64,000 nt of DNA from an uncultured Blastocatellia bacterium (GCA_937934295.1 CALHAI010000013.1:5865-69864); one strand, 5' to 3'; positions 1,978 through 20,536 are shown, counted from the first letter of the stretch. Numbers and translations are program-made. The notes: a model not told the origin generated them from the sequence alone.

Positions 1978-3297
1978 TCAAGGACGGCGAATCCCGTAAC
2001 GTTTCATCTTCCGCCAGAGGGTCGTGCGATTCATGCCGAGCAATTCCGCGCAGCGCGTGATCTCCCAATTGCACGCTTCTAAGGCGGCGCGTAATCGGAG
2101 GGGCTCGCTGATGATCTCAGCGGGCACCGGGTGTTCGAGCCAGGGTTCACGAAGGCCGGGTGGCAGATCCGTAGCGTGGATCGTCGTCCCTTCGCAGACG
2201 ATGGCGGCATATTCGAGGGCGTTCTTCAGTTCGCGCACATTGCCGGGCCATCGGTAGCGCATCATCGCGCGCAGCGCATCGTGACCGAGGCGCAACGCCC
2301 GACCGGTGGCGCACCGCAGCTTCTCCAGAAAATGTTCGGCCAGAAGCGGGAGATCCTCCATGCGCTCCCGTAAGGGGGGCAAGAAGATCGGGACGACGTT
2401 GAGCCGGAAGAAGAGATCCTCTCGAAATCGGCGTTCGGCGACGGCGGCGCGCAAGTCTTTGTTGGTCGCCGCGATGATCCGGACATCCACATGGCGCGTT
2501 CGCGGATCGCCCAGACGTTCGAATTCTCCCGTCTCGAGGACTCGCAAGAGCTTGGCTTGAACGGCCGGACCCAACTCCCCAACTTCGTCCAGAAAGAGCG
2601 TCCCCCCGTTGGCCAGCTCGATGCGTCCCGGTTTATCGGAGACGGCGTCGGTGAACGCCCCACGCACATGCCCGAACAACTCGTCCTCCACCAAAGGATC
2701 GGGCAAAGCCGCGCAGTTCACTCTGATGAATGGGCCTTCGGCTCGCGGGCTGGTGAAATGAAGGGCTTCGGCGACCAGCTCCTTCCCCGTGCCAGTCTCT
2801 CCTTGGATCAAAACTGTGGCCGTCGAATCCTTGAGCAGCTCGATGAGCCGATAGACTTGCTGCATCGCGCGGCTTTTGCCGATGAGGCGGCCAAAGCGCT
2901 CTGGCTCGCGGAGCTGCCGCTCCAACTCGCGCAATGCGGTCACGTCGCGAAGGATGCGCAAGGCGCCCGTGATAGCTCCCCTCGAATCGCGCAGGGTGAC
3001 CGTATGGATGCGGACGATGCGCGTTCGTCCATCTTTAGTCCGAATCGTCGTCTCGAACTCCTCGCACGGGCGCCCGGTCGTGAAGAGTGCCATCACATCG
3101 CAATCCTCTTTACAATACCGACCGGCGCAGATCTCAAAGCACCGAGCGTTGAGGGCTTCTTCTTTCCGGTATCCGGTGATGCGGGCGGCCGCTTCATTGA
3201 AGCCGACGATCCAGAAGTCCCGATCAATGATCATCACGCCATCCTCCATGGCGTCGAGGATGGCCCAGAGGTGATCCTTTTGGTGCTGCCCGAACAT
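1978..3297 (-). CDS. PAS-domain sigma-54-dependent transcriptional activator (NtrC-family AAA+ with C-terminal Fis-type HTH, no receiver domain)
   Basis: N-terminal PAS-like region. Walker A GETGTGKE. GAFTDA and ESELFGH-like sigma-54 interaction motifs. C-terminal HTH (TRCAELLGMNRTTLWRKMKRYGI). AGGGAGGA RBS in front of the ATG at 3297. Confidence 0.8.
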   Translation of the reverse strand: MFGQHQKDHLWAILDAMEDGVMIIDRDFWIVGFNEAAARITGYRKEEALNARCFEICAGRYCKEDCDVMALFTTGRPCEEFETTIRTKDGRTRIVRIHTVTLRDSRGAITGALRILRDVTALRELERQLREPERFGRLIGKSRAMQQVYRLIELLKDSTATVLIQGETGTGKELVAEALHFTSPRAEGPFIRVNCAALPDPLVEDELFGHVRGAFTDAVSDKPGRIELANGGTLFLDEVGELGPAVQAKLLRVLETGEFERLGDPRTRHVDVRIIAATNKDLRAAVAERRFREDLFFRLNVVPIFLPPLRERMEDLPLLAEHFLEKLRCATGRALRLGHDALRAMMRYRWPGNVRELKNALEYAAIVCEGTTIHATDLPPGLREPWLEHPVPAEIISEPLRLRAALEACNWEITRCAELLGMNRTTLWRKMKRYGIRRP

Positions 3298-3865
3298 CCC
3301 GTCCTCCCTGCATGTGCGCGCGATCAATTTTAGGTCGGATATACATGGCGCGACAAGGTGCCCTCGCTCGCGCCGCGAACGCGTTCGCGCTCAGCAGCGA
3401 GGCCGATAGCTCCTCACCCTCGTTGAGCCTGTTGGTGCGCGCGCGCCACATGCGCGATGACGCGCTCGCTCAGATCGAGCGCGTAGACGCAAAGGGCGCG
3501 TTCGTCAGCCAGATCAAGCGACGGAGAAACTCCTCGGCCGGCGTGCCGCTCCGCTCGGCTTCCTGCGCAGCGCGCGAGCGCTCGTTGCTCCACGAACAGG
3601 CGCGCCAGGGTCCTCGGGAAGGACGATCCGCGGCAGCCGTCGGGATGCCCAGGTAGGCACGCGTCCAGATCCCCAGCTCGCCAGAAGCCCCAGCGCGAGC
3701 GCGAGGCCGAGACATCGCCGTCAGATGCGTGTGTGACGACAGCTCGCGTCGAGGGAGCTTAGAGATCGCCGTCGGAGAAGTCAAGCGTGGTGTTGTTCGA
3801 GCCGCACAGTTCGTTTAAAATTGGCCTTCTTGATGGTGATGCGGGATCGTACGTGAAAGGCAGAT

Positions 3866-4285
3866 ATGAGGAAGGTCGCGATCATCGTGTCCAATGGCAG
3901 CTTCAACAATCTCTTTCAAGTGAGCACGCTCATTCGCGCGTTGACGGCATCGCTGGAGACCTCCGTGCGCGTCTTCTTTCGCGACGAAGCCGTCGTGAAA
4001 GTCACCCGAGCGCGCATCAACGAGCTGAATCTCTCGGACCTTGTTCGCCCGATGGAGTCGGAGATCGTGCGACGGCTTCGGGAAGCTGACTTCGTGGATT
4101 TGCACTCCTTTCTACGTGATTCCAAAGAACATGGCGATGACGTGAAACTCTTCGCCTGCACGTCCTCGATGTACATGTACGGCGTCCGGGAGGAGGATTT
4201 GATCCCGGAGATTGACAGCGCGCGCACGCTCACGGACTTCCTCCTGGAAGACGTGAGCGATGCGGAGAGACTCTTCACGTTCTGA
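3866..4285 (+). CDS. DsrE/DsrF-like (sulfur-relay fold) family protein
   Basis: 139 aa. Begins VAIIVSNGSFNN and contains ACTSSMY, which resembles DsrE/TusD-like small proteins. Assignment is from motif recall only. Confidence 0.35.
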   Translation: MRKVAIIVSNGSFNNLFQVSTLIRALTASLETSVRVFFRDEAVVKVTRARINELNLSDLVRPMESEIVRRLREADFVDLHSFLRDSKEHGDDVKLFACTSSMYMYGVREEDLIPEIDSARTLTDFLLEDVSDAERLFTF

Positions 4286-4291
4286 CTGGCG

Positions 4292-5158
4292 ATGAACGGA
4301 GCGAAGAAGAGCTTTCGCATCGGAGATCTGGTGCTCGGAGGGATGGATCTGCTCGTCATCGCCGGGCCCTGCGTCATCGAGAGCGAGGAGCATGCCCTTC
4401 GGATGGCCGAGCATCTGGCGCGCATTGTGGGGCGGCTGGGGCTTCCCTACATCTTCAAGGCCTCCTACGACAAGGCGAATCGGTCTTCGATCCATTCCTT
4501 TCGCGGGCCGGGGTTGGAAGCCGGGTTGAAGATTCTGGCACGGATCAAGCGCGAGGTGGGCGTGCCCATCCTCACCGATGTGCATGAGAGCGCTCACGTC
4601 GGACCCGTGAGCGAGGTCGTAGACGTCCTGCAAATTCCGGCCTTCCTCTCGCGGCAGACGGATTTGATCGTCGCCGCGGCGCGGAGTGGGCGCGCCATCA
4701 ACATCAAGAAGGGGCAATTTCTGGCGCCGTGGGACATGAAGTACGTGATCGAGAAGGCGACCACTGTCGGCTGCGAGCGCATCCTGGTGACGGAGCGGGG
4801 CACGACCTTCGGCTACAACAATCTCGTCGTGGATATGCGTTCACTGCCGATCCTGCGGACGTTCGGGTATCCGGTCATCTTGGACGTCACGCACAGCGTG
4901 CAGTTGCCGGGAGGAGCGGGCGGCCGCAGCTCCGGGCAGTCGGAGTTCATCGAACCCTTAGCGCGCGCAGGGGTCGCCTGCGGCGTGGATGGCGTCTTCA
5001 TGGAGGTGCACGATCAACCGGAGCGCGCGCTCTCGGATGGTCCGAATTCGCTCCCCTTGGAGCGTGTGGCTTCGTTGCTTGCCGTGCTCAAGGCGATTCA
5101 TCAGCTCGTTCGTTCCATCGAGGCGTTGCCCGGAGATGAGACGACGGTGGCCGCATAA
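4292..5158 (+). CDS. kdsA: 3-deoxy-8-phosphooctulonate (KDO8P) synthase
   Basis: LLVIAGPCVIESEEHALRMAEHLARI...LPYIFKASYDKANRSS...VPILTDVHE is a DAHP/KDO8P synthase fold with KdsA-specific motifs. Confidence 0.85.
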   Translation: MNGAKKSFRIGDLVLGGMDLLVIAGPCVIESEEHALRMAEHLARIVGRLGLPYIFKASYDKANRSSIHSFRGPGLEAGLKILARIKREVGVPILTDVHESAHVGPVSEVVDVLQIPAFLSRQTDLIVAAARSGRAINIKKGQFLAPWDMKYVIEKATTVGCERILVTERGTTFGYNNLVVDMRSLPILRTFGYPVILDVTHSVQLPGGAGGRSSGQSEFIEPLARAGVACGVDGVFMEVHDQPERALSDGPNSLPLERVASLLAVLKAIHQLVRSIEALPGDETTVAA

Positions 5159-7469
5159 GCTTGGGATTGGGCTTCTCGCGCTTTTCGGAGTGCCGGGGCG
5201 CTCTTTCGCGCAAGAGCCTGCGGTGCCAGCCCATTTGCTCTTGCGGGTGGAGCGCTATGAGGGGCATGTGAGCCTCATGCCGACCGAAGGACGCGCGGCC
5301 GTACAGATGACGCTCACGGTCACGAATCCCTCGTCGCAGGCCGTGGACCGCATCACGCTGCGCTTGGGGGCGATCGCGGAGGTCACGGAGATTCGCCTTG
5401 AGGGGACGCCGCTCTCTTTCACCTCGCGCAAGGATGAGATGACGGGGCTTGTCGGCTATGCCCTCGCGCTTCCGGAACCGGTGCGCCCCGGGCAGTCGGT
5501 TCGAATCTCGCTCACCTATGGTGTGCACGCGGAGGAGGCGACGCCGCGTGCGGCGTTGACGCCGGAGGAATGCGTGCTCCTGCCCGAGAGCCTCTGGCTG
5601 CCGATGATTCATACACCGTTTCAGATCGAATACCGCGTAGACCTGTCGCCCTTCACCTTGAGCATCGAGAGCCCGAGCGCGCTCTTTGGTCTCTCTTCGG
5701 GGCGATTTGTCACGGAGAGGGTGGAGGGGGGGAAGCGCCTGGTGACGTTCGAGGAGCCGATGCGCTCGCAGCCCGTCTTCATCGCGCGCGATTTCGAACG
5801 GGTCAGGGAGGATCGTGAAGGGGTGGAATTTTACGTGCCACGCGGATTCGCCGTGCTTCGCCCGGGGATGCTCGAACGCCTGCGGGCGGAGATCGTTCGC
5901 CTTCGCGAGTTCTACACGGCGTTCTTCGGCGTCCCCCTGGAGCGGACGATTCGAGTGATCGCTTCGAGCGAGGTCCCGGCCTATGGCGCACCCGGGCTGC
6001 TGATCTTCGACGAGCGCATCTTCGCTCGCGATGTGCTCGATGAGGACGTGCTCTTCTTCTTGGCCGCTCAAGTGGCGCGGCTGTGGATGGGTGCCCGCGT
6101 GGACATTCGAGGCGTTGGACATGCCGTGCTGGACCAAGGGATGCCGAGCTATCTCGCTTTCCTCTATCTGGAGCAGCGGTTTGGGGCATCCGGATGGAAG
6201 CGGGCGATCGAGCGCTTCCGGCGCGCTTACGCGACGTTGGTGAGTGGGGGGAGCGCCTACGATGTCCCGTTGCTGCGGCAGACGCTGTTGGCGCGTCAGT
6301 ATTACACGAGCGTCTTCAACAAGACGCCAATGGTGATGCGGCTGTTGGCGCGCGCGCTTGGACCTGAGCGCTTTCATGCATTCGTGCGCGAGTTGTTCGC
6401 GCGTCCGGACAGGAGCCTCGCGTTTGAGGATTTCCAGCGCGGGTGTGTGGCGCTCGATGCGTCGGAAGTCGTGAGGGGCATCTTCGATCAGTGGTTCGCC
6501 GAGGTCGTGCTCCCGGATTTCGCCGTGGGGAAGCCCGTGGCGGAAGGGGAGATGTGGACCGTTCAGGTGGCGAATTTCGGCAGCGGCGAGGCGACCGTTG
6601 ACGTGGAGGTGCTCACGGCTCAGGGGAACCGTCTGCGGCAATCGGTGCGCGTTGAAGCGCAAGGGTACGGGCAAGTGCGGTTTCGCGAGGAGCCCGTGTC
6701 CGTCACGGTGGATCCGGATCGGCTTTATCTTCAGGCCGATTACACGAACGATACATGGCCTCGACGTCCCGCTGTGGATCGGCTCGTGAGCCAGGGGACG
6801 CTGGCCTTGGTGCAAGGGAGGGTCCAAGAGGCGGAAGCGACGTTGCGTCAAGCGCTCGCGCAAGACCCGGATCGTCCTCTCGCGCAGGCGGCGCTGGCTC
6901 GGGCGCTCGCGCTTTTAGGGAAAGGGGATGAGGCCGAGGGATATGTGCAGCAGGCGCTTGCTCAGGAGCCGCTGGCACTCGGAGGGTACGCGTGGGCGCA
7001 GATGGCGCTTGGCGAGATCGCCCTGGCGCGCGGGCAACCGGCGCTGGCGGTCGAGCATTTTCGCCAGGCGAGTTTCGCCTTCGCCGAGGACATCTCGCTG
7101 CTCATGGCTCGCGATGCGCTCATTCGCGCCGAGAGTGCCGCGCAGAAGCTTCCGGCGGTCGAACGTTCCGCTCAGGAGTTCATTCGTCAACTCGACAGCG
7201 CGCTCAGCACTGGACGACCGGCCGCTGTGCGGGAGCTCATCACCCCGCAGAATCTGAAGCGATTCATCACGGGGGCGTCTTTCCTCAAGGAATGGAAGAC
7301 GGAGATCCTGCGCGCGGAGGCCCTCGATCGAAATCGCGTCCTGGTTGACGCTCGGATCGTGGCGACGACGATCGGCGGGAAGCAAACGTCGTCGCGCGCC
7401 CTCTATGTCTTGCGGCGGAGTGACGGACGTTGGACCTTGTATGACATCCCCGTTTTCCTCGAACGCTGA
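5136..7469 (+). CDS. M1-aminopeptidase-like secreted protein with substituted zinc/catalytic residues and C-terminal TPR repeats (pseudopeptidase)
   Basis: ATG at 5136 behind GGAG, overlapping the kdsA 3' end. Signal peptide MRRRWPHKLGIGLLALFGVPGRSFA. YGAPGLLIFDE...FLAAQVARLWMG aligns to the M1 GAMEN...HEXXHXW region with H->A, E->Q, H->R. LDQG replaces the downstream NEG(F) glutamate. C-terminal TPR-like repeats are present (ALAQDPDRPLAQAALARALALLGKGDEA...). Confidence 0.5.
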   Translation: MRRRWPHKLGIGLLALFGVPGRSFAQEPAVPAHLLLRVERYEGHVSLMPTEGRAAVQMTLTVTNPSSQAVDRITLRLGAIAEVTEIRLEGTPLSFTSRKDEMTGLVGYALALPEPVRPGQSVRISLTYGVHAEEATPRAALTPEECVLLPESLWLPMIHTPFQIEYRVDLSPFTLSIESPSALFGLSSGRFVTERVEGGKRLVTFEEPMRSQPVFIARDFERVREDREGVEFYVPRGFAVLRPGMLERLRAEIVRLREFYTAFFGVPLERTIRVIASSEVPAYGAPGLLIFDERIFARDVLDEDVLFFLAAQVARLWMGARVDIRGVGHAVLDQGMPSYLAFLYLEQRFGASGWKRAIERFRRAYATLVSGGSAYDVPLLRQTLLARQYYTSVFNKTPMVMRLLARALGPERFHAFVRELFARPDRSLAFEDFQRGCVALDASEVVRGIFDQWFAEVVLPDFAVGKPVAEGEMWTVQVANFGSGEATVDVEVLTAQGNRLRQSVRVEAQGYGQVRFREEPVSVTVDPDRLYLQADYTNDTWPRRPAVDRLVSQGTLALVQGRVQEAEATLRQALAQDPDRPLAQAALARALALLGKGDEAEGYVQQALAQEPLALGGYAWAQMALGEIALARGQPALAVEHFRQASFAFAEDISLLMARDALIRAESAAQKLPAVERSAQEFIRQLDSALSTGRPAAVRELITPQNLKRFITGASFLKEWKTEILRAEALDRNRVLVDARIVATTIGGKQTSSRALYVLRRSDGRWTLYDIPVFLER

Positions 7470-7487: not shown

Positions 7488-8045
7488 ATGGATGAGGAGG
7501 TGAAACGTCGTGCGCAAGCTGTTCGCGTGCTCCTCATGGATTGCGACGGAGTGCTCACGGACGGGCGCATCATCCTGCTACCCGACAGCGATGACATCAA
7601 GCTCTTCGATGCGCACGATGGTCAAGGGTTGAAGCTCGCCGCGCGCGCCGGACTCCGCACAGGGGTGATCACGATCCGACATTCGCGCACGCTGGAGCGG
7701 CGCGCGGCCGAAGTCGCCATACACTATCTGCACCAAGGTGTCGAACGCAAGCTCGAAGCTTACGAGCGCATCCTTCGTGAGGAAGGCGCGCGCGATGAAG
7801 AGGTCGCCTACATCGGGGATGATCTCCCCGATCTCCCCCTGATGCGGCGCGTGGGCTTAGCCGTGGCCGTCGCCAATGCCGTCGAGGATGTCAAGCGCGC
7901 GGCGCACTATGTGACTCGATGCGCGGGCGGGCGCGGTGCCGTGCGCGAGACGATCGAGTTGATCCTCAAAGCGCAAGGGAAGTGGGAGCGCGTGCTCGCC
8001 GACTATCTCGAAGCGTCGCCGCGCGAAGAGCGTTCGACGCCGTGA
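7488..8045 (+). CDS. kdsC: KDO 8-phosphate phosphatase (HAD family)
   Basis: VRVLLMDCDGVLTDGRIIL...DAHDGQGLKLAARAGLRTGVITIRHS...IGDDLPDLPLM has HAD motifs I-III in the KdsC arrangement. Confidence 0.8.
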   Translation: MDEEVKRRAQAVRVLLMDCDGVLTDGRIILLPDSDDIKLFDAHDGQGLKLAARAGLRTGVITIRHSRTLERRAAEVAIHYLHQGVERKLEAYERILREEGARDEEVAYIGDDLPDLPLMRRVGLAVAVANAVEDVKRAAHYVTRCAGGRGAVRETIELILKAQGKWERVLADYLEASPREERSTP

Positions 8046-9112: not shown

Positions 9113-9832
9113 ATGTTCAGCGGGGTGGTCGGAAAATATGGCGGGATCGCGCGCGATGCCCTCGCCCGATGGTTGGCGGGCTATCGTTTGCATCCGAATC
9201 TGCTGACGGTCATCGGCCTGCTGGTTACGATCTGGGCCGCCGTGCTCTTCGCCCGCGGGCAGTTCATCGCCGCCGGATTGGTGCTCCTGGTCGCCGGAGC
9301 CTGCGACATCCTCGATGGCGCGCTGGCGCGTCTGACCCGTCAGGTGACGCGGTTTGGCGCCTTCTTGGATTCGGTCTTGGATCGCTATTCGGACGTCAGC
9401 ATCTTCCTTGGCCTGATCGTCTACTTCGCTCGTCCGACGCCTGATCAAAGCCTCTTCTACGTCGTGCTGACTGGGATCGCGATGATCGGCTCGCTCATGA
9501 CCAGCTATGTGCGAGCGCGGGCCGAATCGTTGATCGCTCATTGTCGCGTCGGGTTCCTGGAACGTCCGGAGCGACTGACGCTCCTGATCATCGGAGCCTT
9601 GACGGAGGTGCCTGGAGCGGAAGGGAGCTATTTCCTTCATAAGATGCCTGCCGTGCTGTGGCTCATCGCGATCCTCTCGCACTGGACGGTCGCGCAACGT
9701 GTCTACTACACATGGAAGATGACGCGGGCTCTCGACGCGGAGACGTTCTCCTCGGCGGAGGTGACGCCACGGGCCTTCTCCCAATCGGCCTTCGCGGGAG
9801 GAGCGGGCGTGGAGAAGGAGGCGGAGTTATGA
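9113..9832 (+). CDS. CDP-alcohol phosphatidyltransferase family protein
   Basis: DILDGALARLTRQVTRFGAFLDSVLDRYSDV matches the D(x)2DG(x)2AR...G(x)3D(x)3D signature. Multiple TM helices. Confidence 0.75.
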   Translation: MFSGVVGKYGGIARDALARWLAGYRLHPNLLTVIGLLVTIWAAVLFARGQFIAAGLVLLVAGACDILDGALARLTRQVTRFGAFLDSVLDRYSDVSIFLGLIVYFARPTPDQSLFYVVLTGIAMIGSLMTSYVRARAESLIAHCRVGFLERPERLTLLIIGALTEVPGAEGSYFLHKMPAVLWLIAILSHWTVAQRVYYTWKMTRALDAETFSSAEVTPRAFSQSAFAGGAGVEKEAEL

Positions 9833-10605
9833 AGCGCGAGTCGGAGAAAGCCTGTCCGAGCTGCGGGCGAAGGGTCGCTCATGCAGCGACTGCGTGTGTG
9901 TGTGGCGCGCGATGGGTGGCCCCTCACCCGCCAGGGCCCGAATTCCGAGTGCCGCGCATGGGTAAGCCCATCACGGCGGTGAGCGTGATTGCCCTGACTG
10001 TGCTCATCGAGGCGATCATCCTCGTGCACGAGGTGTATGTGAGTCCGTTTGTCTGGACGGAAGCGATCGGCTCCATGCTTGTCGATCTGGCGCGCGTCTT
10101 CGTGCCGGTGATCTTGGTCGCGGCCTATCTCGCTTATCGAGGGGGCCGAGAGGCGCGGCGCGCGCCCGACCAATATGGTGGGGAACGGGTGGCGCGGGCG
10201 GGGCTGGTGGCCGCGATGCTCTTGCTCGCCGTTCACGTGGGCGTCTTCGTGGCGCATGTCCCCCGCATGATCGAAAACAAACGCCTCCGGCAGGAGGCAG
10301 CCACGCGGGCAAACCTCTATCGCTTGGCGTGGGCTCTCGAAGCGTATCGGCAGCAGTACGGCACGTATCCGCGCCGGCTCATTGATCTGCAGGAACTGGA
10401 TCCCAATTTGAAGCCGGTCGTGGATGCCTGGGGACGCGAGTTCATCTACAGCGCCATCTCGGGAGATGTCGCGGCGGCGGCACCGATGCCCTTCCAGCGC
10501 TACCAGCTCGTCTCGAAGGGCCCAGACGGGGTTCTGGGAACGGCGGATGACATCGTCCTACGCGATGATGTCTTGCTGCGGGGGAGAGAGAGCAGGGCGC
10601 GATGA
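9829..10605 (+). CDS. membrane protein: N-terminal zinc-ribbon (CPSCGRRV...CVCG), three TM helices, C-terminal GspG (type II secretion pseudopilin)-like globular domain
   Basis: ATG at 9829 overlaps the upstream stop (ATGA). The C-terminus (ANLYRLAWALEAYRQQYGTYPRRLIDLQELD...DAWGREFIYSAISGD...YQLVSKGPDGVLGTADDIV) resembles the T2SS GspG C-terminal domain. There is no prepilin leader. Confidence 0.5.
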   Translation: MKRESEKACPSCGRRVAHAATACVCGARWVAPHPPGPEFRVPRMGKPITAVSVIALTVLIEAIILVHEVYVSPFVWTEAIGSMLVDLARVFVPVILVAAYLAYRGGREARRAPDQYGGERVARAGLVAAMLLLAVHVGVFVAHVPRMIENKRLRQEAATRANLYRLAWALEAYRQQYGTYPRRLIDLQELDPNLKPVVDAWGREFIYSAISGDVAAAAPMPFQRYQLVSKGPDGVLGTADDIVLRDDVLLRGRESRAR

Positions 10606-12116
10606 TGTTTCGGAAGATCCTCATCGCCAATCGGGGAGAGATCGCCGTGCGCGTGATTCGCGCGTGCCGCGAGTTGGGGATCTCTCCGGTGGTCGTCTAT
10701 TCGGAAGCGGACGAGCGCTCGCTGCACGTTCGGTTGGCCGACGAGGCGTATCTGATCGGCCCGCCTCCTTCGGTGGAGAGTTATCTGCGCGGCGATCGCA
10801 TTATCGAGGTGGCGCGGCGGGCCGGAGCCGAAGCCATCCATCCCGGGTATGGGTTCTTGGCGGAGAATGCGGAGTTCGCGCGCGCCGTGGCAGACGCGGG
10901 CTTGGTCTTCATTGGACCGAATTGGCAGGCGATGGAGCAATTGGGGCAGAAGACGCAAGCGCGCGCATTGGCGCGTGTGGCGGAGGTCCCCGTCGTGCCG
11001 GGGACGGAGGAACCGGTTCGAGATCTCGCGCATGCGCAAGCGATCGCCGAGCAAGTGGGGTATCCGGTGATGTTGAAAGCGGCGGCCGGCGGCGGAGGAA
11101 AAGGCATGCGCCTGGTGCGCTCCCCCGAAGAGCTGCCGAACGCCCTGGCCATGGCGCAAGCGGAAGCACAAGCAGCGTTCAATGACCCTTCCGTCTACAT
11201 CGAGAAGGCGATCGAGCGTCCGCGTCACATCGAGATGCAGATCCTGGCCGATCGCTATGGGCAGGTCGTGTATCTCGGAGAGCGCGAGTGTTCCCTGCAG
11301 CGGCGCCATCAGAAGGTGATCGAAGAGGCGCCGGCGAGCTGGAATGATCCCCAACTGCGACGGCGGATGGGGGAAGCGGCCGTCCGTCTCGCCCGAGCGG
11401 CCGGTTATACGAATGCCGGGACGGTCGAATTCCTCGTGGATGAGGAGCGCAACTTCTATTTCCTCGAAGTGAATGCCCGCATTCAAGTCGAACATCCGGT
11501 GACGGAGATGGTCACCGGCGTGGATCTGGTACGTGAGCAGATTCGTCTGGCGGCGGGCGAACCGCTGCGCCTGCGACAGAGCGACATTCAGTTGCGCGGA
11601 TCGGCCATCGAATGCCGCATCTACGCCGAGGACCCGGAGAACGATTTCTTCCCCTCGGCGGGTCGGATCGAGACGCTTCGGCTGCCCGCCGGACCAGGCA
11701 TTCGCGTGGACAGCGGCGTATATGCCGGGTGGGACGTCTCGATCCATTACGATCCGCTTCTGCTGAAACTCATCGCGTGGGGGGAGACGCGCCAGCAAGC
11801 ACTTGAGCGCATGCGGTGGGCATTGGAGGAGACGGTCATCACGGGGATTCGCACGACCGTCCCCCTCTATCGCGAGATCTTTCGCGATCCCGATTTCCTT
11901 GCGGGGAAGATCGACACGGGCTATCTCTCGCGCTTCCTCGCGACTCGCGGAGAGGCGCTTCGTTCGAGCGGTGAGCTCCTCTCCCGAGACGCCGCGTTGA
12001 TCGCGGCCGCGCTTTTCGCCGCGAGCGAGCGGGAATCGCGCGAGCCGGCGCCAGCGACGCCCCCGAGCATCTGGAAGTGGCAGGGGCGATTGTTTCGGCT
12101 CATGTCGCGGTTATGA
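10602..12116 (+). CDS. accC: biotin carboxylase (acetyl/propionyl-CoA carboxylase biotin carboxylase subunit)
   Basis: KILIANRGEIAVRVIRACRELGI...HPGYGFLAENAEFA...YPVMLKAAAGGGGKGMR. ATP-grasp motifs and BC N- and C-domains are present. Confidence 0.85.
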   Translation: MMFRKILIANRGEIAVRVIRACRELGISPVVVYSEADERSLHVRLADEAYLIGPPPSVESYLRGDRIIEVARRAGAEAIHPGYGFLAENAEFARAVADAGLVFIGPNWQAMEQLGQKTQARALARVAEVPVVPGTEEPVRDLAHAQAIAEQVGYPVMLKAAAGGGGKGMRLVRSPEELPNALAMAQAEAQAAFNDPSVYIEKAIERPRHIEMQILADRYGQVVYLGERECSLQRRHQKVIEEAPASWNDPQLRRRMGEAAVRLARAAGYTNAGTVEFLVDEERNFYFLEVNARIQVEHPVTEMVTGVDLVREQIRLAAGEPLRLRQSDIQLRGSAIECRIYAEDPENDFFPSAGRIETLRLPAGPGIRVDSGVYAGWDVSIHYDPLLLKLIAWGETRQQALERMRWALEETVITGIRTTVPLYREIFRDPDFLAGKIDTGYLSRFLATRGEALRSSGELLSRDAALIAAALFAASERESREPAPATPPSIWKWQGRLFRLMSRL

Positions 12117-12912: not shown

Positions 12913-14367
12913 TCACGGCTTCGCGTGCGCCGGAGGCGAATTCTCCGGACGCGCGCGCTCGCTGAGCGTGATGGCGATATCGCTGTAGAGGACGTACCCC
13001 ATGAGCAAGAGGATGAGCGCCAGCCCCACCGTTTGAATCTTCTCCCGAAGCGACATCGTCAGCTCTTTCCCCGCCAACCCCATCACCCATTCCACGAAGA
13101 GCATGAGGATGAGTCCTCCATCGAGCACCGGGATGGGGAAGAGGTTGAAGAGGCCGAGGCTGAGGCTGATGAGGCTCATGACGACGAGCAACTCTTTCAG
13201 CCCACGTTCGGCCGCTTTCCCTGACAAATCGGCGATGCGCACGGGACCGGCGAAAGTCTCGCGCACGGTCCGTTGGCCGCGGAGGACTTCGACGAGCGCT
13301 TCCAACGTGAGGCGCGCGTAGAAGAGGTTTTGCCGAAACGATTCTCGCAGCGCCGCGCCCATCCCCATGCGCACGGTCCCGCGCTGAAGCGGTTCGGGCT
13401 CCGGAGCGATGCCGATTCGCCCTCGCCCGCGGTCATTGAAGGGGACGACTTTCACCTCTCGGCGCTTTCCTTCGCGCACGTAAGTGAGCGTCAATTCCTT
13501 CCCGATGCTCCGGCCAACGAGAGCCACGAGAATGGGGAAGGCCGTGATCTCCACCTCATCAATGCGAACGATCTTGTCTCCCGGTCGCAGTCCGGCCGCT
13601 TCCGCGGGTGATCCGCGTTCGACCTGCGCGATGACCACCCCATCGGTAGTCGGAGGAGGGAGCAATCCCGATTCACCGACGATGTCGAATCGGCCCTGAA
13701 CCGCCTCGAGCGAAAGCGGGACATGCAGGCGTTGTCCCTCGCGTTCGACGACGACGACGATCGTTTGGTTTGGCTTCGCGAGCGTGAGGTCTTCCACTTC
13801 CCCCCAGGTAGGGTTCTGATGACCGTCGAATTCGACGATGACATCCCCTGGACGCAGGCCCGCGCGTTCGGCGGGAGAGCCGGGGACGATCGCCCCGATG
13901 CGCGCTTTCTCGACCCGATAGGCCGGGCCCGGATAGCTCACCATGAAGAGCGCAGCCGGGAGCGCGAGCGCCAGCAGGAGGTTCATCGCCGGACCAGCTA
14001 GCGCGACCAGGAACCGTTGCCACTTCGGTCGCGCCAGGAACGCCTCCGGCGGAAGGGGTCCGAGTTTCGCCTCCTCGGGGTTCTCGCCGAGCATCTTCAC
14101 ATAGCCACCCAGCGGAATGGCCGAGACACGATAGTCCGTCCCGCTGCGTCGCACGCCGAAAAGACGCGGGCCGAAACCGAGGCTGAAGACCTCAACCCGA
14201 ATCTTGAAGAGCTTGGCGACCGCGAAGTGGCCCAACTCGTGGACGAAGATGAGGACCCCAATGACGAAGATGAATACGGTGAGCGTCGTCACAAAGTCCA
14301 ACACGTCTGACTCCCCTTTCAGCGCCTCACGGAACAAAGTGTACTCGACGCGCGCGCCCTTGTCCAT
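12913..14367 (-). CDS. rseP: RIP metalloprotease RseP (site-2 protease, M50 family, PDZ domains)
   Basis: HELGHFAVAKLFKIRVEVFSLGFGP is the M50 HExxH motif. Internal PDZ-like GSPAERAGLRPGDVIV and GSPAEAAGLRPGDKIV. C-terminal LDGG motif. Confidence 0.8.
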   Translation of the reverse strand: MDKGARVEYTLFREALKGESDVLDFVTTLTVFIFVIGVLIFVHELGHFAVAKLFKIRVEVFSLGFGPRLFGVRRSGTDYRVSAIPLGGYVKMLGENPEEAKLGPLPPEAFLARPKWQRFLVALAGPAMNLLLALALPAALFMVSYPGPAYRVEKARIGAIVPGSPAERAGLRPGDVIVEFDGHQNPTWGEVEDLTLAKPNQTIVVVVEREGQRLHVPLSLEAVQGRFDIVGESGLLPPPTTDGVVIAQVERGSPAEAAGLRPGDKIVRIDEVEITAFPILVALVGRSIGKELTLTYVREGKRREVKVVPFNDRGRGRIGIAPEPEPLQRGTVRMGMGAALRESFRQNLFYARLTLEALVEVLRGQRTVRETFAGPVRIADLSGKAAERGLKELLVVMSLISLSLGLFNLFPIPVLDGGLILMLFVEWVMGLAGKELTMSLREKIQTVGLALILLLMGYVLYSDIAITLSERARPENSPPAHAKP

Positions 14368-14368
14368 G

Positions 14369-15223
14369 TCAGTCGGACTTCGGCGCCGCTTTGTCCTGAA
14401 GCGCGATGGCTTCGTTGAGCGCTCCCGTGCGATATCCTTCCAGATCCAGCGTCACGAATGCGAAGCCGAGCGCCTTGAATTCCCGTATCAGGCGCTCGAG
14501 CGTCGCTGGCTCCACGGCGCGACCGAGTTCGTCGCGACCCAGCTCCAGACGCACCAACGGACCATGATGGCGGACGCGAAAGATCCGAAAGCCCAGCCCG
14601 CGCAGGATCTCCTCTCCTCGTTCGATGGTTCGGAGCTTCTCCACCGTCACCTCCATGCCATAGGGGATACGAGAGGCCAAGCAGGCCGAGGCCGGTTTAT
14701 CCCAGGTCGGGAGACCATGCCGTCGAGACAGCTCCCGGACCTCGGCCTTAGTGAGGTGGCATTCGATGAGCGGGCTGCGGATGCCGAATTCTCGGGCGGC
14801 CTGGCGGCCCGGTCGAAAATCGTCGAGATCGTCCACATTTGCTCCGTCACACACGGCGCGAAAGCCGCGCTCACGCGCTAATCGGGTCAGCTTCTCATAG
14901 AGCTCGCGTTTGCAGTAGTAACACCGGTTGGGCGGATTGCGGCGATAGTCGGGATCGTCGAACTCTTCGGTCCGAATCAGCAAATGTGGGATGCGAAAGC
15001 GTCGGGCGAATGCGATCGCCTCCTCGCGATGCCGCGCGGCCAGGCTCGGGCTCTCGGCGGTCACCGCGAGCATCCGCTTGCCAAGTACGCGAGCGGCGAT
15101 GAAGGCGACATAGGCGCTGTCCACGCCTCCGGAATATGCGACAACCGCCGATCCCAACTCGCGGAACACCGCGCACACGCGCTGTTCCTTCTGCTCCACT
15201 TCCTCCCACCTCGCCCCGCTCAT
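14369..15223 (-). CDS. PP-loop ATP pyrophosphatase of the LarE/TIGR00268 family
   Basis: VVAYSGGVDSAYVAF contains the SGGxDS PP-loop. Size and CxxC-containing region are consistent with LarE-like sulfur transferases. Confidence 0.55.
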   Translation of the reverse strand: MSGARWEEVEQKEQRVCAVFRELGSAVVAYSGGVDSAYVAFIAARVLGKRMLAVTAESPSLAARHREEAIAFARRFRIPHLLIRTEEFDDPDYRRNPPNRCYYCKRELYEKLTRLARERGFRAVCDGANVDDLDDFRPGRQAAREFGIRSPLIECHLTKAEVRELSRRHGLPTWDKPASACLASRIPYGMEVTVEKLRTIERGEEILRGLGFRIFRVRHHGPLVRLELGRDELGRAVEPATLERLIREFKALGFAFVTLDLEGYRTGALNEAIALQDKAAPKSD

Positions 15224-15359
15224 CTTGCCGAGTCAGTATATCGCACTCTCGAGCGCTTGATCAATGCGCCGCTCTCGCGCCAAAATGACCAACTTGATCT
15301 CGTGAGGCGAAGCTGAAGAGGCGAGCCGTCGCCGGGAGACCAACTCGAGGAGGAGGCCG

Positions 15360-16865
15360 ATGGCTGCGAGCAGAAGAGGGCGAATCGTCATCATCGCGCT
15401 GGTGCTTATCGGCATCAGCAGCTGTGCTGTGGGGGGCTTGGCGCAGCCGCCGCGTCGGACCCTTCGGCAGCTTGAGCGGCATTTTGAGGAGATCCTTCGA
15501 CGGCCCGAGTTCGCGACGACACGATGGGGGATTCTCGTCGAATCGTTGGATCGGCGGATGGTCCTTGTCCAGCGTGAGGCGGATCAGCTCTTCACGCCAG
15601 CCTCGAACATGAAGCTCTACACGACGGCAGCGGCGCTGGTGCGCCTTGGGCCGAATTTCCGATTCCGCACGTCGGTCTATGCGCTGGCGCGACCGGATGA
15701 GCGCGGACATGTGGAGGGAGATGTGATCCTCTACGGGCGCGGCGATCCGAATCTCAGCACGCGCACGCTCGCCGGGGGGTATCTGACACCGTTCTTCGAC
15801 CTGGCCGATCAACTCGCGCGGGCCGGTGTGCGCGAAATCTTCGGCGACATCGTTGGGGACGAGAGCTACTTCGTGGGGCCGCGCTTGGGCGTCGGTTGGG
15901 AATGGGATGACCTGCAATGGTATTACGGCGCGGAGGTGAGCGCGCTCTCCGTGGACGATAACTTCGTGGACGTGACCCTTCGTCCGGGCGAGCGCGAGGG
16001 CGATCCTGTACAGGTGATTCTTTCGTCCCCCTCTGTGGCCATCGTCAATCGCGCTGTGACGGCCGTTGACGGGACGCCACAGCGGATCGAGATCGAGCGC
16101 GGGTTGCAAGACAATATTGTGGAGATTCAAGGCGTGATGCCTCGAGACAGCCTGGGGTATCGAGCGGCCGTCGCCATGCACCATCCGGCATTGTATGCGG
16201 CCACGTGCTTTCGCGAGGCACTCCTGCGGCGCGGCATTCACGTGCACGGGCGCGCCGTCGCGGCCGATTGGAAAGTGCGGCGCGAGCGTCCGCTCGATCT
16301 TCGACAGATGATCGAGCTGGCGGCCATCGAGTCCATCCCTTTGAGCGAGGTGATTCGCACGGTGAACAAGATCAGCCAGAATTTGCACGCGGAGATCCTC
16401 TTGCGGGTCCTCGGAGCGGAGGTGAAGGGCGAGGGATCGGACGAGAAAGGGCTCGACGTCATTCGCGAATTCCTGAGCGAGATCGGGGCGCGAACCTCGG
16501 GTGTGCGCGTGCGAGACGGATCGGGCCTCTCGCGCCTGAATCTGGTGACGCCGGCGACGACGGTCGATCTGCTCCGCTTCATGAGTCGGCACGAACATGG
16601 CGCGATCTATCACGCGTCGCTTCCGGTCGCTGGTGCAGATGGGACACTCGAACGACGCATGACGGGGACGCCAGCGGCAGGGAACGTGCGGGCGAAAACG
16701 GGAACGCTCGCCTATACCTTCACGCTCTCCGGATACGTGACGACGATGCGGGGAGAGCGACTCGTCTTCAGTTTCATGGTCAACCATCATACGGGCGAAG
16801 CGGCGCATGTGCTTTCGGCATTGAATGAGCTGTGCGCGACATTGGCGGCCTTCGCCGGGCCATGA
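15360..16865 (+). CDS. dacB: D-alanyl-D-alanine carboxypeptidase/endopeptidase (PBP4, peptidase S13)
   Basis: Signal peptide. ASNMKL contains the SxxK motif. Length and KTGT-like KTGTLAY (KTG box) fit S13. Confidence 0.75.
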   Translation: MAASRRGRIVIIALVLIGISSCAVGGLAQPPRRTLRQLERHFEEILRRPEFATTRWGILVESLDRRMVLVQREADQLFTPASNMKLYTTAAALVRLGPNFRFRTSVYALARPDERGHVEGDVILYGRGDPNLSTRTLAGGYLTPFFDLADQLARAGVREIFGDIVGDESYFVGPRLGVGWEWDDLQWYYGAEVSALSVDDNFVDVTLRPGEREGDPVQVILSSPSVAIVNRAVTAVDGTPQRIEIERGLQDNIVEIQGVMPRDSLGYRAAVAMHHPALYAATCFREALLRRGIHVHGRAVAADWKVRRERPLDLRQMIELAAIESIPLSEVIRTVNKISQNLHAEILLRVLGAEVKGEGSDEKGLDVIREFLSEIGARTSGVRVRDGSGLSRLNLVTPATTVDLLRFMSRHEHGAIYHASLPVAGADGTLERRMTGTPAAGNVRAKTGTLAYTFTLSGYVTTMRGERLVFSFMVNHHTGEAAHVLSALNELCATLAAFAGP

Positions 16866-16869
16866 GGTC

Positions 16870-18576
16870 TCACCGCCGTCGGATCAGGAATTGATCCATG
16901 ACCAGATAGTCCATCTCCGAGCGAAGGAAGCAGTCCACGGCATCCTCGGGCGTGCAAACGATCGGCTCTTGGATATTGAATGAGGTGTTCAGCAAGACCG
17001 GAACGCCCGTGAGACGTTCGAACTCGCGGATGAGCTTCCAGTAGCGCGGATTCGTCTTGCGGCTGACCGTTTGCGGACGCGCTGTTCCGTCCACGTGGAC
17101 GACGGCCGGGATCACAGGCCGCATCTCCGGGACGACCGGGTGTACGGTGATCATGAAGGGGGCATGCAGGCGGCGACCGAAGACGATCTGGACGCGTTCC
17201 TCGAGGACGGAGGGGGCGAAGGGGCGAAAGGGTTCGCGGAGCTTCACCTTGCGATTGAGCACATCGCGAATCTCCGGTCGTCGGGGATCGGCGAGGATCG
17301 AGCGGTTGCCGAGCGCACGCGGTCCCCACTCCATGCGCCCTTGAAACCAGGCGATGATCTTCCCTTTGGCCAGGAGCTGGGCGACGCGGCCAATGAGCAC
17401 CTCTTCCTCAAGCTCCTCCCACTGCCCTGGCATCATGGCCAGAGCGCGGTGATAGTCCGCGCGCTTGAATTGAGGCCCCCAATACGCGTGCTCCATCACG
17501 AAGTGTCGGGGATGGCCGAGGATCACATGAGCGATGTAGAGTGCGGCGCCGAGGGCACCACCGGCATCATGGGCCGCCGGCTGAATGTACACGGCCTCGA
17601 AATCCGATTCGCGCTCGATGCGCCCGTTGAGCACGGCGTTGAGTGCACAGCCGCCGGCCAGGCACAGGGCGCGCTCGCCCGTGACCCGTTTCAACCAGCG
17701 CAAGAGGTGAAGGACGGTCTCCTCGAAGACCTTCTGGGCGCTGGCCGCGATATTGAAGTGGCGTTCGGTGAACGGTTCGTCGGGGCGACGCGGTGGACCG
17801 AGCACGCGCGTCAGGGCTTCGGGGAAGCGATAGTGCTTCGCCAGATGGTGATCGAGCAGCGCCGTGTTCAACTGGAAATCGGCCTCGCCCGTCAGACGCA
17901 GGACGTTCTGACGGAAGAAGTCATAGAATTCGGGTTCGCCGTAGGCGGCCGCACCCATGACCTTGTACTCGTCGCCCTCGAACATATCGAAGCCGAGGAA
18001 GTTCGTGATGGCCGAGTAGAACTGCCCCAGCGAGTTGGGCAGGCGGATCTCCTTCACCTTTCGAATGCGCGTCCCTTGTCCGTGAGCGAAGAGTGTCGTC
18101 GTGGCTTCGCCCGTCCCGTCGAAGGTGAAGATGGCCGCCGACTCGAACGGGGAGCAGAAGAAAGCGCTCGCCGCATGACAGAGGTGGTGTTCGAGATAGT
18201 GGAATCGGAAGTCGCGGCCGCCGTACTGTTCGCGCAGCAGGCGCGGCAGGCGCATCATCGGGAAGTAGTGACCGGAGATCTGTTCGCGGCCGCGCACGAC
18301 GCGTCGGACGAAATGCTCGGGCGAGCGCGTGAGCGCCGCCAGTGTCGTCCGAATTCGATGGCCGAGCACCCAAGGACGCCAGTACAAGCCCACGTGTGCG
18401 ATATCAGCCATGCTGATTCGGGCTTCTTCCAGGACGTAGCGCAGGGCATTATGGGGGAAGCCGACGTGATGTTTGATTCGCGAGAAACGCTCCTCTTCGG
18501 CGGCGGCGACGAGATCGCCGTCGCGAAGCAGAGCCGCAGCGGCTTCTCCCATTGTGGTCAGGCCGAGGATGTACAT
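16870..18576 (-). CDS. carbamoyltransferase (NodU/CmcH family)
   Basis: MYILGLTTMGEAAAALLRDGDLVAAAEEERFSRIKHH is typical of the NodU/CmcH carbamoyltransferase N-terminus. About 570 aa. Confidence 0.7.
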   Translation of the reverse strand: MYILGLTTMGEAAAALLRDGDLVAAAEEERFSRIKHHVGFPHNALRYVLEEARISMADIAHVGLYWRPWVLGHRIRTTLAALTRSPEHFVRRVVRGREQISGHYFPMMRLPRLLREQYGGRDFRFHYLEHHLCHAASAFFCSPFESAAIFTFDGTGEATTTLFAHGQGTRIRKVKEIRLPNSLGQFYSAITNFLGFDMFEGDEYKVMGAAAYGEPEFYDFFRQNVLRLTGEADFQLNTALLDHHLAKHYRFPEALTRVLGPPRRPDEPFTERHFNIAASAQKVFEETVLHLLRWLKRVTGERALCLAGGCALNAVLNGRIERESDFEAVYIQPAAHDAGGALGAALYIAHVILGHPRHFVMEHAYWGPQFKRADYHRALAMMPGQWEELEEEVLIGRVAQLLAKGKIIAWFQGRMEWGPRALGNRSILADPRRPEIRDVLNRKVKLREPFRPFAPSVLEERVQIVFGRRLHAPFMITVHPVVPEMRPVIPAVVHVDGTARPQTVSRKTNPRYWKLIREFERLTGVPVLLNTSFNIQEPIVCTPEDAVDCFLRSEMDYLVMDQFLIRRR

Positions 18577-18634
18577 CGGGGGCAACTGTAGCCAACGCCG
18601 TCGCTCCCCGTCAACACATCGGCTCCTCCCATGC

Positions 18635-18664
18635 TTGACACTCCGGCCTTGAGTTCGCTATCTT
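18635..18664 (+). promoter_or_regulatory. sigma-70-like promoter candidate for rplM-rpsI (TTGACA-18 nt-TATCTT)
   Basis: TTGACA at 18635-18640, 18-nt spacer, TATCTT at 18659-18664. GGGGGAG RBS about 8 nt before the rplM ATG. Confidence 0.4.
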
Positions 18665-18700
18665 TAACGCTCGCTTTGAAGTCGAGCATCGAGGGGGAGC

Positions 18701-19135
18701 ATGAAGACTTACGTTCCGAGCGGGAAGGATTTGGACGCGCAGCGGAAATGGTACGTCGTGGACGCGGCGGGCATGACTGTTGGCCGATTGGCCTCGCGCG
18801 TGGCGCGGATCCTCATGGGGAAGCATAAGCCGACATATACTCCTTTTCTGGATCTGGGTGATCATGTGATCGTCATCAATGCGGCCAAGGTGCGGTTCAC
18901 GGGGCGGAAGTGGGAGCAGAAGATCTATCGGTATCACACGGGGCATCCCGGCGGATTGAAGGAGATTCCGGCCAAGCGGATGCTGGCCGAGCATCCGGAG
19001 CGGATCGTGGAGTGGGCGATCCTGGGGATGTTGCCCAAGACGAAATTGGGCAGGAAGAAGGCGAAGAGGCTGCGCGTCTATGCCGGGCCGGAGCACCCGC
19101 ATGAGGCGCAGCGACCGGAACCTTTGACCGTGTAA
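18701..19135 (+). CDS. rplM: 50S ribosomal protein L13
   Basis: [49 protein letters not shown]. Confidence 0.9.
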
Positions 19136-19144
19136 GGAGTCGCT

Positions 19145-19540
19145 ATGGCGGAGTTGATCCAATATTGGGGGACGGGACGGCGCAAGACCTCGACGGCGCG
19201 CGTCATCTTGCGTCCGGGGGCGGGGCAGATCACGATCAATGGGCGTCCGCTTGAGGCCTATTTCCCACTCGAGCGGCATCGCGCCGTCATTCGGCAGCCG
19301 CTGTTGTTGGCCGATGCCTTGGGCAAATTCGATATCCGCGTGAACGTGCGAGGCGGGGGGATCACCGGGCAGGCTGAGGCGATCCGACACGGGATCGCGC
19401 GCGCTCTGCTTGAATTCAATTCCGATCTGCGCCCCCGCTTGAAGGAAGCGGGGCTGCTCACCCGCGATGCGCGCATCAAAGAACGCAAGAAATATGGGCA
19501 GAAAGGAGCCCGAAAGCGATTCCAATATTCCAAGCGGTGA
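19145..19540 (+). CDS. rpsI: 30S ribosomal protein S9
   Basis: C-terminal [17 protein letters not shown] and central [19 protein letters not shown]. Confidence 0.9.
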
Positions 19541-19724
19541 GTGTTCGAGAGCGACTCTCCCCGGACATCGTGGGCGATCTCTGGCGAGGTTCGCGCGCAT
19601 GATTCCAGGGGGGCCTCCGTGGGCTTCCCGACCCTGCTTGGCCGTCGTCGCGATGGGAGATCCGCGCGCGACCGAGTGCGGGCGGCCGAGCGCGAAAATC
19701 ATATCGAGGAGGTGAGGGACGGCG

Positions 19725-20531: not shown

Positions 20532-20536
20532 GGACT

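Follow-up and report, generated by a model that had tools for sequence, protein, structure and literature searches.

Kdo (3-deoxy-D-manno-octulosonic acid) is an essential sugar of lipopolysaccharide (LPS). To our knowledge, what is understood of how LPS and the outer membrane are assembled comes almost wholly from Proteobacteria; the Acidobacteria are abundant in soil and little studied. Catalytically dead peptidase homologues are, as far as we know, recorded mostly from eukaryotes, and within the M1 family the TFIID subunit TAF2 lacks the zinc ligands. The clefts of dead peptidases often find a new use in binding, and a 2024 review of metallo-pseudopeptidases has yeast Tma108 as its sole M1 entry, with no bacterial M1 example (PMC11266112). 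Here we describe gene X, located between kdsA and kdsC in a 64,000-nt stretch of DNA from an uncultured Blastocatellia bacterium (GCA_937934295.1, CALHAI010000013.1:5865-69864; hereafter, the window). An earlier sequence-only reading of this stretch took the product to be a secreted 778-aa M1 aminopeptidase homologue with a TPR (tetratricopeptide repeat) tail, devoid of zinc ligands and catalytic Glu, and co-transcribed with the two kds genes. It further suggested a non-catalytic scaffold tied to LPS core synthesis. We consider it very probable that X is an M1 homologue without catalytic function and a conserved member of the Kdo operon.

Three lines of evidence, namely the fold, weak direct and strong transitive sequence similarity, agree and establish that X is homologous to M1 peptidases. 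When X was compared with all PDB sequences by phmmer, E. coli PepN was matched over aa 182-466 (E 2e-5) and, TPR proteins aside, the matches were solely M1 aminopeptidases. A profile built from eight family members (N-terminal 520 aa) was searched against the PDB and returned aminopeptidase N entries, TAF2 (matched by the X-family profile at E 8e-4) and a 474-aa putative zinc metalloprotease. An AlphaFold2 model of X was built from an 18-sequence alignment (predicted local distance difference test score, pLDDT, 74; predicted template modelling score 0.74). All of the 50 best Foldseek matches of this model in the PDB are M1 aminopeptidases (E 6e-24 to 1e-20, probability 1.0), namely IRAP, ERAP1/2, PepN, PSA and Toxoplasma APN, with alignments of 730-830 columns. 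The M1 fold assigned by the sequence-only reading is thus returned by phmmer, profile and structure searches alike. With a TPR-free X-family profile, HMMER was run exhaustively against 1.84 billion representatives and gave 3298 hits at E ≤ 1e-3; from E 4e-43 onward these are proteins with intact HEXXH. Six of seven HEXXH relatives tested (P0046-P0048, P0056, P0079 and P0122; E 4e-43 to 1e-19) pass the Pfam Peptidase_M1 gathering score; the seventh, P0059, has no Pfam hit. No M48 hit was obtained for X in Pfam or NCBIfam, and none of the curated Pfam and NCBIfam models scanned covers the protein.

Residues of X were mapped to PepN through the phmmer alignment, and the PepN numbering that it implies (G261-N265, H297, E298, H301, E320) agrees with the known active site. 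The aligned pairs (X/PepN) are AQVARLW/HEYFHNW, LDQG/LKEG, PAYGA/GAMEN and VFNK/VYEK (Table 1). The alignment confirms that zinc ligands and catalytic Glu are all replaced, as had been read from AQVARLW and LDQG, and adds the losses of the GAMEN Glu and the catalytic Tyr. The catalytic features that define M1 membership are therefore all absent from X in this alignment: a HEXXH-X18-E motif, the Glu of the GXMEN exopeptidase motif, which binds the alpha-amino group of substrates, and the catalytic Tyr, which stabilises the transition state. In MEROPS terms X is, judged by its sequence, a non-peptidase homologue.

The loss is family-wide. HEXXH is absent from the aligned site in 17 homologues of X (44-93% identity) and was found in 0/118 family sequences read (38 database proteins down to 23% identity and 80 metagenome genes). 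An intact HEXXH elsewhere, on whose absence the sequence-only reading had made itself depend, occurs nowhere in X and nowhere in the 80 metagenome member fragments. The latter come from a scan seeded with an alignment of the deepest subgroup (A5), which gave 80 soil loci; a broad 27-sequence alignment (A4) was too divergent as a seed. Twenty deeper relatives, all full-length (23-35% identity, 750-838 aa, the same five modules), have the site motif A-x-x-x-A-[R/K]-x-W. Among the 80 metagenome members the first-His position is E or D in 80/80, the catalytic-Glu position A, T, S or G in 78/80, and the second-His position R in 68 and H in 12; P, A, T, G or S stands at the catalytic-Tyr position. 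Across the X family as a whole the GAMEN-Glu position is variable, most deeper members have D or E at the Q334 position, and the Tyr position is F, Y, L, P, A, T or S, as against Y in the HEXXH-bearing relatives outside it. In that HEXXH-bearing outgroup the same alignment columns still hold H-E-x-x-H, x-E-[GA] and the Tyr. Hence, catalytic loss defines the X clade and is not sporadic decay. The R315 position is R or K in 25/27 family representatives, and this fixed Arg/Lys at the place of the second His may sit where the metal used to be. We also considered a metal site elsewhere, which is unsupported: H159 and H329 are conserved solely in a close subgroup, and no His or Cys is conserved throughout the X family.

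The model of X comprises five modules, in order a beta-sandwich, a thermolysin-like domain, a small beta-sandwich, TPR helices and a C-terminal alpha+beta domain. The TPR region stands where M1 enzymes have the helical domain IV, and Pfam hits at aa 553-645 exceed their cutoffs (TPR_19, 34.9 bits versus 25, E 2e-8; TPR_14, 31.5 versus 23.5; TPR_2, 30.3 versus 27). The TPR tail seen in the sequence-only reading is therefore real but incomplete, since the tail also includes the C-terminal NTF2-like domain. The latter was modelled separately (aa 666-777, pLDDT 86) and is matched by Foldseek to LinA, the CaMKII hub/association domain, SnoaL/ketosteroid-isomerase-like and other NTF2-like proteins (E 3e-4, TM 0.6-0.73); no Pfam sequence family matched it. 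On this basis it is placed in the NTF2-like superfamily, whose hallmark is an alpha+beta cone with three helices against a curved antiparallel sheet.

The N-terminus of X (MRRRWPHKLGIGLLALFGVPGRSFA before the cleavage point, QE after) resembles a signal peptide. Of the family N-termini inspected, 38/38 have an n-region that is basic, then a hydrophobic h-region and an A-x-A site followed by Q, without lipobox. X is thus predicted to be a soluble exported protein. A signal peptide precludes physical scaffolding of cytoplasmic KdsA and KdsC, and if X is exported, any tie to LPS would be on the periplasmic side. Of the scaffold hypothesis, the non-catalytic part holds and scaffolding of the cytoplasmic Kdo enzymes does not, while a link to LPS is one that we infer. 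A separate idea, that X stands in for a missing cytoplasmic KdsD, was rejected because every member has a signal peptide and no isomerase-like domain is present.

Gene X is an open reading frame (ORF) at 5136-7469 (+) encoding 777 aa plus a stop codon, so that the earlier length of 778 aa is corrected by one; its secretion is retained as a heuristically read signal peptide. The ATG start is backed by homologues. The flanking genes are, by NCBIfam, a bona fide KdsA (equivalog) and a KdsC subfamily member, and the linkage is conserved; against the KdsC equivalog PRK09484 the downstream gene scores 172 bits (E 8e-51), under the cutoff of 208. The overlap of the X start with the 3' end of kdsA, seen in the sequence-only reading, measures 23 nt (ATG at 5136, kdsA stop TAA at 5156-5158). 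The 18-nt gap to kdsC is likewise as first read (X stop at 7467-7469, kdsC ATG at 7488), and GGAGGGAG, a Shine-Dalgarno-like sequence, precedes the kdsC start. Upstream, the dsrE-like gene ends 6 nt before kdsA, and the two probably form one transcription unit. We found no sigma-70-like promoter and no intrinsic-terminator-like site between the dsrE-like gene (3866) and the end of deoC (9039), and no Rfam match in the window at gathering thresholds. From this arrangement X would be co-transcribed with kdsA and kdsC, and it is probably translationally coupled within the Kdo operon. The dsrE-like gene, which codes for a sulfur-relay-type protein and heads the Kdo operon, is collinear with kdsA in L001-L006 (69-93% identity).

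The kdsA-X-kdsC order, whose recurrence in relatives the sequence-only reading had left to be checked, is present in 9/9 relatives at 44-86% identity. In five genomes whose X is 72-86% identical, the whole segment between the dsrE-like gene and accC, both included, is collinear. Four relatives with 44-55% identity (L006, L007, L009, L010) keep kdsA-X-kdsC with outer flanks unlike those of the window; in L007 and L009, start and stop codons overlap by 4 nt. In the curated set, kdsA is upstream of X in 14/16 loci. The seven deeper loci of the dead clade have kdsA upstream in five and kdsC downstream in three; one of the five kdsA-bearing loci has two small genes between kdsA and X, one locus shows the full order kdsB-pyrG-kdsA-X-orf-kdsC, and two (L013, L019) have neither kdsA nor kdsC. 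The metagenome loci, which like the others are not phylogenetically independent, show kdsA as the immediate upstream neighbour, in the same orientation, in 61/61 cases with at least 600 nt of upstream sequence, and kdsC within 1.5 kb in 53/68 with enough downstream sequence. In most of the remaining ones kdsC is ~2 kb downstream and a larE-larB pair is inserted. The outer flanks of metagenome loci vary (trpS-scpA-scpB, a Ser/Thr kinase or pyrG), and those of L023 and L078 are unrelated housekeeping genes. Thus, adjacency to kdsA survives to ~25% X identity with changing flanks, which argues for selection on the kdsA-X arrangement. The position directly after kdsA is the sole strongly conserved genomic feature of the X family. 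By comparison, the one HEXXH-bearing relative whose locus was examined (P0046) has no kds gene nearby.

Several of these loci carry inserted genes. A gene for a DUF4919 protein lies between kdsA and X in L023 (3222-3962), and a UPF0175 gene together with an Ivy/MliC-like lysozyme-inhibitor gene in L015 (737-1734); a 172-aa ORF without Pfam hit separates X from kdsC in L018 (7275-7793). The X-kdsC insert in the 11 soil relatives examined, those in which kdsC is ~2 kb downstream, is an ORF pair closely similar to LarE and LarB, one representative of each being confirmed by NCBIfam. In L019, a 5.5-kb stretch after X without called genes (49% GC) may be an rRNA operon.

Members of the X family belong to the Acidobacteriota, class Blastocatellia where named. 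Their organism names include Blastocatellia, Chloracidobacterium, Pyrinomonadaceae, Acidobacteriota and 'bacterium HR08/HR10'; one locus, from a genome labelled 'uncultured Clostridia bacterium', is collinear with others. Database product names are 'hypothetical', 'tetratricopeptide repeat protein' and, once, 'aminopeptidase N'. Gene X is under purifying selection: the ratio of nonsynonymous to synonymous substitution rates (dN/dS) is 0.15-0.20 against five relatives, versus 0.06-0.15 for kdsA/kdsC in the same genomes. The full-length five-module architecture is kept in >100 loci, down to 23% identity. A domain-I loop, P150-x-x-x-W154-x-P156 (PESLWLP in X), is invariant in the family, and the most conserved linker, VDPD..Y.Q..Y.ND..P (aa 525-542), follows domain III. 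The most conserved loops are aa 148-168, 366-395 and 527-536 (window positions 5577-5639, 6231-6320 and 6714-6743); they may line one cavity or become ordered on a partner.

TPRs are protein-protein interaction modules, and NTF2-like domains oligomerise or form a small hydrophobic pocket. X keeps the M1 domain order, with TPRs as the helical module, and adds the NTF2-like domain; having lost its catalytic residues, it would, we propose, serve as a binding protein. Made with a cleavable Sec signal peptide, it would work outside the cytoplasm. Because its gene would share transcription with kdsA and kdsC, the amount of X should track the synthesis of Kdo, a sugar of the LPS inner core, and this co-expression would make LPS/outer-membrane assembly the most economical context for the protein. 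Dead cleft, TPRs and NTF2-like domain would jointly make up a module for binding or scaffolding in the periplasm. During LPS/outer-membrane biogenesis this module might keep hold of a client, be it a protein of envelope assembly or an intermediate of LPS, and leave it uncut. The nearest working analogue is BepA, a peptidase-TPR protein with a chaperone-like activity that does not depend on proteolysis. Taken as a whole, the picture of a non-catalytic exported M1/TPR/NTF2 protein of the Kdo operon that acts in envelope assembly seems to us somewhat more probable than not. A specific envelope-assembly role, argued by analogy, is more tentative, and we regard it as possible rather than probable. 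The most detailed version is unlikely to be right in full. In it, the X family would be a Blastocatellia-specific periplasmic LPS/outer-membrane assembly factor, whose zinc-less Arg/Lys cleft and basic domain II recognise either Kdo-lipid A or, in an LPS-transport protein, a segment that is unfolded, with the TPR and NTF2-like parts docking to the machinery.

Several observations weigh against this proposal or parts of it. The direct Pfam Peptidase_M1 match of X (aa 289-425, E 2.3e-4, 21.3 bits) does not reach the curated cutoff of 27.7. The signal-peptide call is a heuristic reading of N-termini. The three most conserved loops are also the model's three internal segments with pLDDT <50, and the modelled geometry of the pseudo-active site is therefore tentative. 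No lpt, bam or other LPS-assembly genes were seen beside the triad, downstream of kdsC or between X and kdsC. Any ligand or partner named for X would be a proposal by analogy. Operon membership is no proof of a shared pathway: the unit of close relatives includes unrelated genes (dsrE-like, deoC), and larE-larB can be inserted between X and kdsC. Finally, both kdsA-less loci (L013 5001-7349 and L019 8001-10361) have co-directional peptidase genes directly upstream, an M17 peptidase gene in L013 and an M16/M16 pair in L019, and these neighbours are hints of a peptide-related role.

The last two observations speak for X as an operon hitch-hiker. On this view it would be exported and non-catalytic and would bind peptides or proteins, for instance as a chaperone of general use in the periplasm or by partnering or regulating secreted peptidases. 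Its job would be unrelated to Kdo or LPS, and it would be kept behind kdsA only for strong constitutive co-expression. Retention of the P-x-x-x-W-x-P domain-I loop and the edge-strand region from active relatives also fits, and there is a precedent in the M1 pseudopeptidase Tma108, which binds nascent peptides via its pocket (PMC11266112). However, adjacency to kdsA that is near universal (61/61 and 14/16) at 23-50% identity, with changing flanks, exceeds what a neutral neighbour would be expected to show; a kds link is missing in the one active relative examined, and the GAMEN Glu that anchors the peptide N-terminus is lost. We take this explanation as a real, if rather doubtful, possibility.

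A neo-functionalised enzyme is improbable. Here the cleft would have been rebuilt (E/D311, R/K315, D/E334 and invariant R298, R360, D376, Y389 and K396) to catalyse, without zinc, a reaction in the periplasm whose substrate contains Kdo or is otherwise anionic. A set of charged and Tyr residues in domain II is indeed invariant or nearly so across the family, the soil subgroup is acidic at 311 in 80/80 and at 334 in 79/80, and the tight genetic link to Kdo synthesis fits a Kdo-related substrate. In most members domain II has a basic pI (9-10), which would suit such a substrate but does not discriminate between the hypotheses. On the other hand, the acidic pair is not shared by the whole family, since X carries A311, Q312 and Q334; a conserved His, Cys or Ser nucleophile is lacking, R298 and D302 align with R279 and D285 of active PepN and may be structural, and no precedent was found in the literature. 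That X is a drifting ex-aminopeptidase or a spurious ORF has practically no chance of being correct: all catalytic residues are gone and many long spurious ORFs overlap the region in other frames of this 64% GC DNA, but the dN/dS values, the unbroken frames, the conservation of five modules in >100 loci and an AlphaFold2 model confident over most domains reject a decaying pseudogene.

If the most detailed version of the envelope-assembly proposal is true, no bacterial M1 pseudopeptidase before X would have had a defined role, and LPS biogenesis would gain a new component from outside the Proteobacteria. It is a candidate lineage-specific envelope-assembly factor in Acidobacteria, and its family offers a clean case of an M1 cleft repurposed after zinc loss, with Arg/Lys for the second His. 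Should X be merely a co-expressed passenger, the result would still correct the labels 'aminopeptidase N', 'TPR protein' and 'hypothetical'.

Table 1. Positions of gene X, its parts and the adjoining genes in the window
Feature	Position	Strand	Evidence or remark
dsrE-like gene (139 aa)	3866..4285	+	Pfam DsrE E 3e-8
kdsA (3-deoxy-8-phosphooctulonate synthase)	4292..5158	+	NCBIfam NF003543 E 1.8e-124, 414 bits vs cutoff 242; Pfam DAHP_synth_1
X, exported-looking M1-fold pseudopeptidase with TPR and NTF2-like domains	5136..7469	+	ORF; 17 full-length homologues, 44-93% identity
Putative Sec-type signal peptide (aa 1-25: RRR-WPHK / LGIGLLALFGV / PGRSFA, then QE)	5136..5210	+	no lipobox Cys
Domain I, N-terminal beta-sandwich (aa 37-235)	5244..5840	+	AlphaFold2 secondary structure; Foldseek M1 match
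Domain II, thermolysin-like (pseudo)catalytic (aa 243-455)	5862..6500	+	sub-cutoff Pfam Peptidase_M1; phmmer to PepN; AlphaFold2/Foldseek
PAYGA (aa 281-285), GAMEN counterpart	5976..5990	+	PepN E264 (GAMEN Glu) to G284
AQVAR (aa 311-315), HEXXH counterpart	6066..6080	+	zinc ligands H297 to A311 and H301 to R315; catalytic E298 to Q312
Q334, third zinc ligand counterpart	6135..6137	+	PepN E320 to Q
F394, catalytic Tyr counterpart	6315..6317	+	PepN Y381 to F
Domain III, small beta-sandwich (aa 462-526)	6519..6713	+	AlphaFold2 model
TPR region (aa 547-668, about 7 helices)	6774..7139	+	Pfam TPR hits; AlphaFold2 helices
NTF2-like alpha+beta domain (aa 677-768)	7164..7439	+	separate AlphaFold2 model; Foldseek
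kdsC (Kdo-8-phosphate phosphatase family)	7488..8045	+	NCBIfam TIGR01670, 155 bits vs cutoff 107

Other genes of the window were annotated over 1-21 kb, and in this part no kdsB, kdsD, waaA, lpx or lpt genes were seen. A CDP-alcohol phosphatidyltransferase at 9113-9832 (+) has its greatest similarity to synthases of archaetidylinositol-phosphate (165 bits) and phosphatidylinositol-phosphate (147 bits), in each case under the cutoff, and is followed by a conserved 258-315-aa ORF at 9658/9829-10605 (+) with weak zinc-ribbon and T2SS-G pseudopilin-like hits; together they may indicate inositol-lipid synthesis in this acidobacterium. An RseP-like site-2 protease gene at 12913-14367 (-) (M50, two PDZ domains) adjoins a gene for a LarE sacrificial sulfur transferase at 14369-15223 (-) (NCBIfam 325 bits), and a LarC-type gene (Pfam Ni_insertion) is found nearby in L007. 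Also present are a PAS/sigma-54 activator at 1978-3327 (-), a carbamoyltransferase at 16870-18585 (-), rpsB-tsf at 19725-21172 (+) and, at 10602-12116 (+), a biotin carboxylase of either the accC or the pyruvate-carboxylase subunit A type. Three ORFs of 621, 515 and 375 aa at 61-1926, 15261-16808 and 18611-19738 (all -) have no Pfam hit at E ≤ 1e-5 (two of them also none at E ≤ 0.1) and are either genes or GC-rich artefacts.

Known systems resemble X in part. E. coli SirB1/YchA, which we take to be a transglutaminase-like and TPR protein of unassigned function encoded upstream of kdsA, similarly has a peptidase-like fold with TPRs beside kdsA, but it is cytoplasmic, of an unrelated fold and on the upstream side. 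kdsA neighbourhoods may recruit TPR proteins, for which SirB1/YchA is only a lead. E. coli BepA (YfgC, M48) likewise has a periplasmic gluzincin-type peptidase fold followed by TPRs and is linked to LPS biogenesis via LptD maturation at BAM, the machinery for beta-barrel assembly (PMC8423444; PMC7950410). This periplasmic metallopeptidase promotes LptD maturation, and its E137Q mutant keeps partial chaperone-like activity (PMC8423444). In contrast to X, BepA is an active regulated protease of M48 and not of M1, without an NTF2-like domain and outside the kds operon. The analogy is functional alone, and nothing ties X to LptD or BAM. TAF2 and Tma108 likewise use the M1 fold for binding and not hydrolysis; they differ in being eukaryotic, intracellular and involved in transcription or translation, and have no TPR/NTF2 tail, signal peptide or envelope-gene link. 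Moreover, Tma108 still has HEXXH-E.

The M1 aminopeptidases (PepN, ERAP1/2, IRAP, LTA4H) share fold and domain order with X, provide its best structural matches and show sequence similarity to it near the active-site helices. Unlike these enzymes, X has no zinc ligands, catalytic Glu, GAMEN Glu or catalytic Tyr; it carries a short TPR array in place of the large ARM/HEAT-like domain IV, and it has an extra NTF2-like domain, a predicted signal peptide and a location in the Kdo operon. Outside the family, its nearest sequence relatives are M1-like proteins with HEXXH from environmental bacteria (P0046-P0049 and others), which the profile reaches at E 4e-43 to 1e-17 and which share the domain-I W-x-P loop with X (P-E-S-x-W-x-P in some, e.g. 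P0117). They differ by retaining HEXXH, x-E-[GA] and the Tyr, and by passing the Pfam cutoffs. Some have TPRs and some are fused to ABC-2 permeases. P0046 has TPR after its M1 part as X does, but at 670 aa it leaves no room for the full TPR and NTF2-like tail. Proteins of ~1130-1270 aa also occur in this outgroup (P0079, P0091, P0114, P0115, P0119, P0136, P0163), and P0079, the sole large one scanned against Pfam, has an ABC-2-type permease region fused to a C-terminal M1 peptidase domain. The sequence-only reading knew of no description of such a protein, and our full-text searching of the literature likewise found none of the X family, of a bacterial M1 pseudopeptidase or of a kdsA/kdsC-linked TPR protein. 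Overall, compared with the systems described so far, X is an M1 pseudopeptidase with a new architecture, a new predicted cellular compartment and a new, conserved genomic context.

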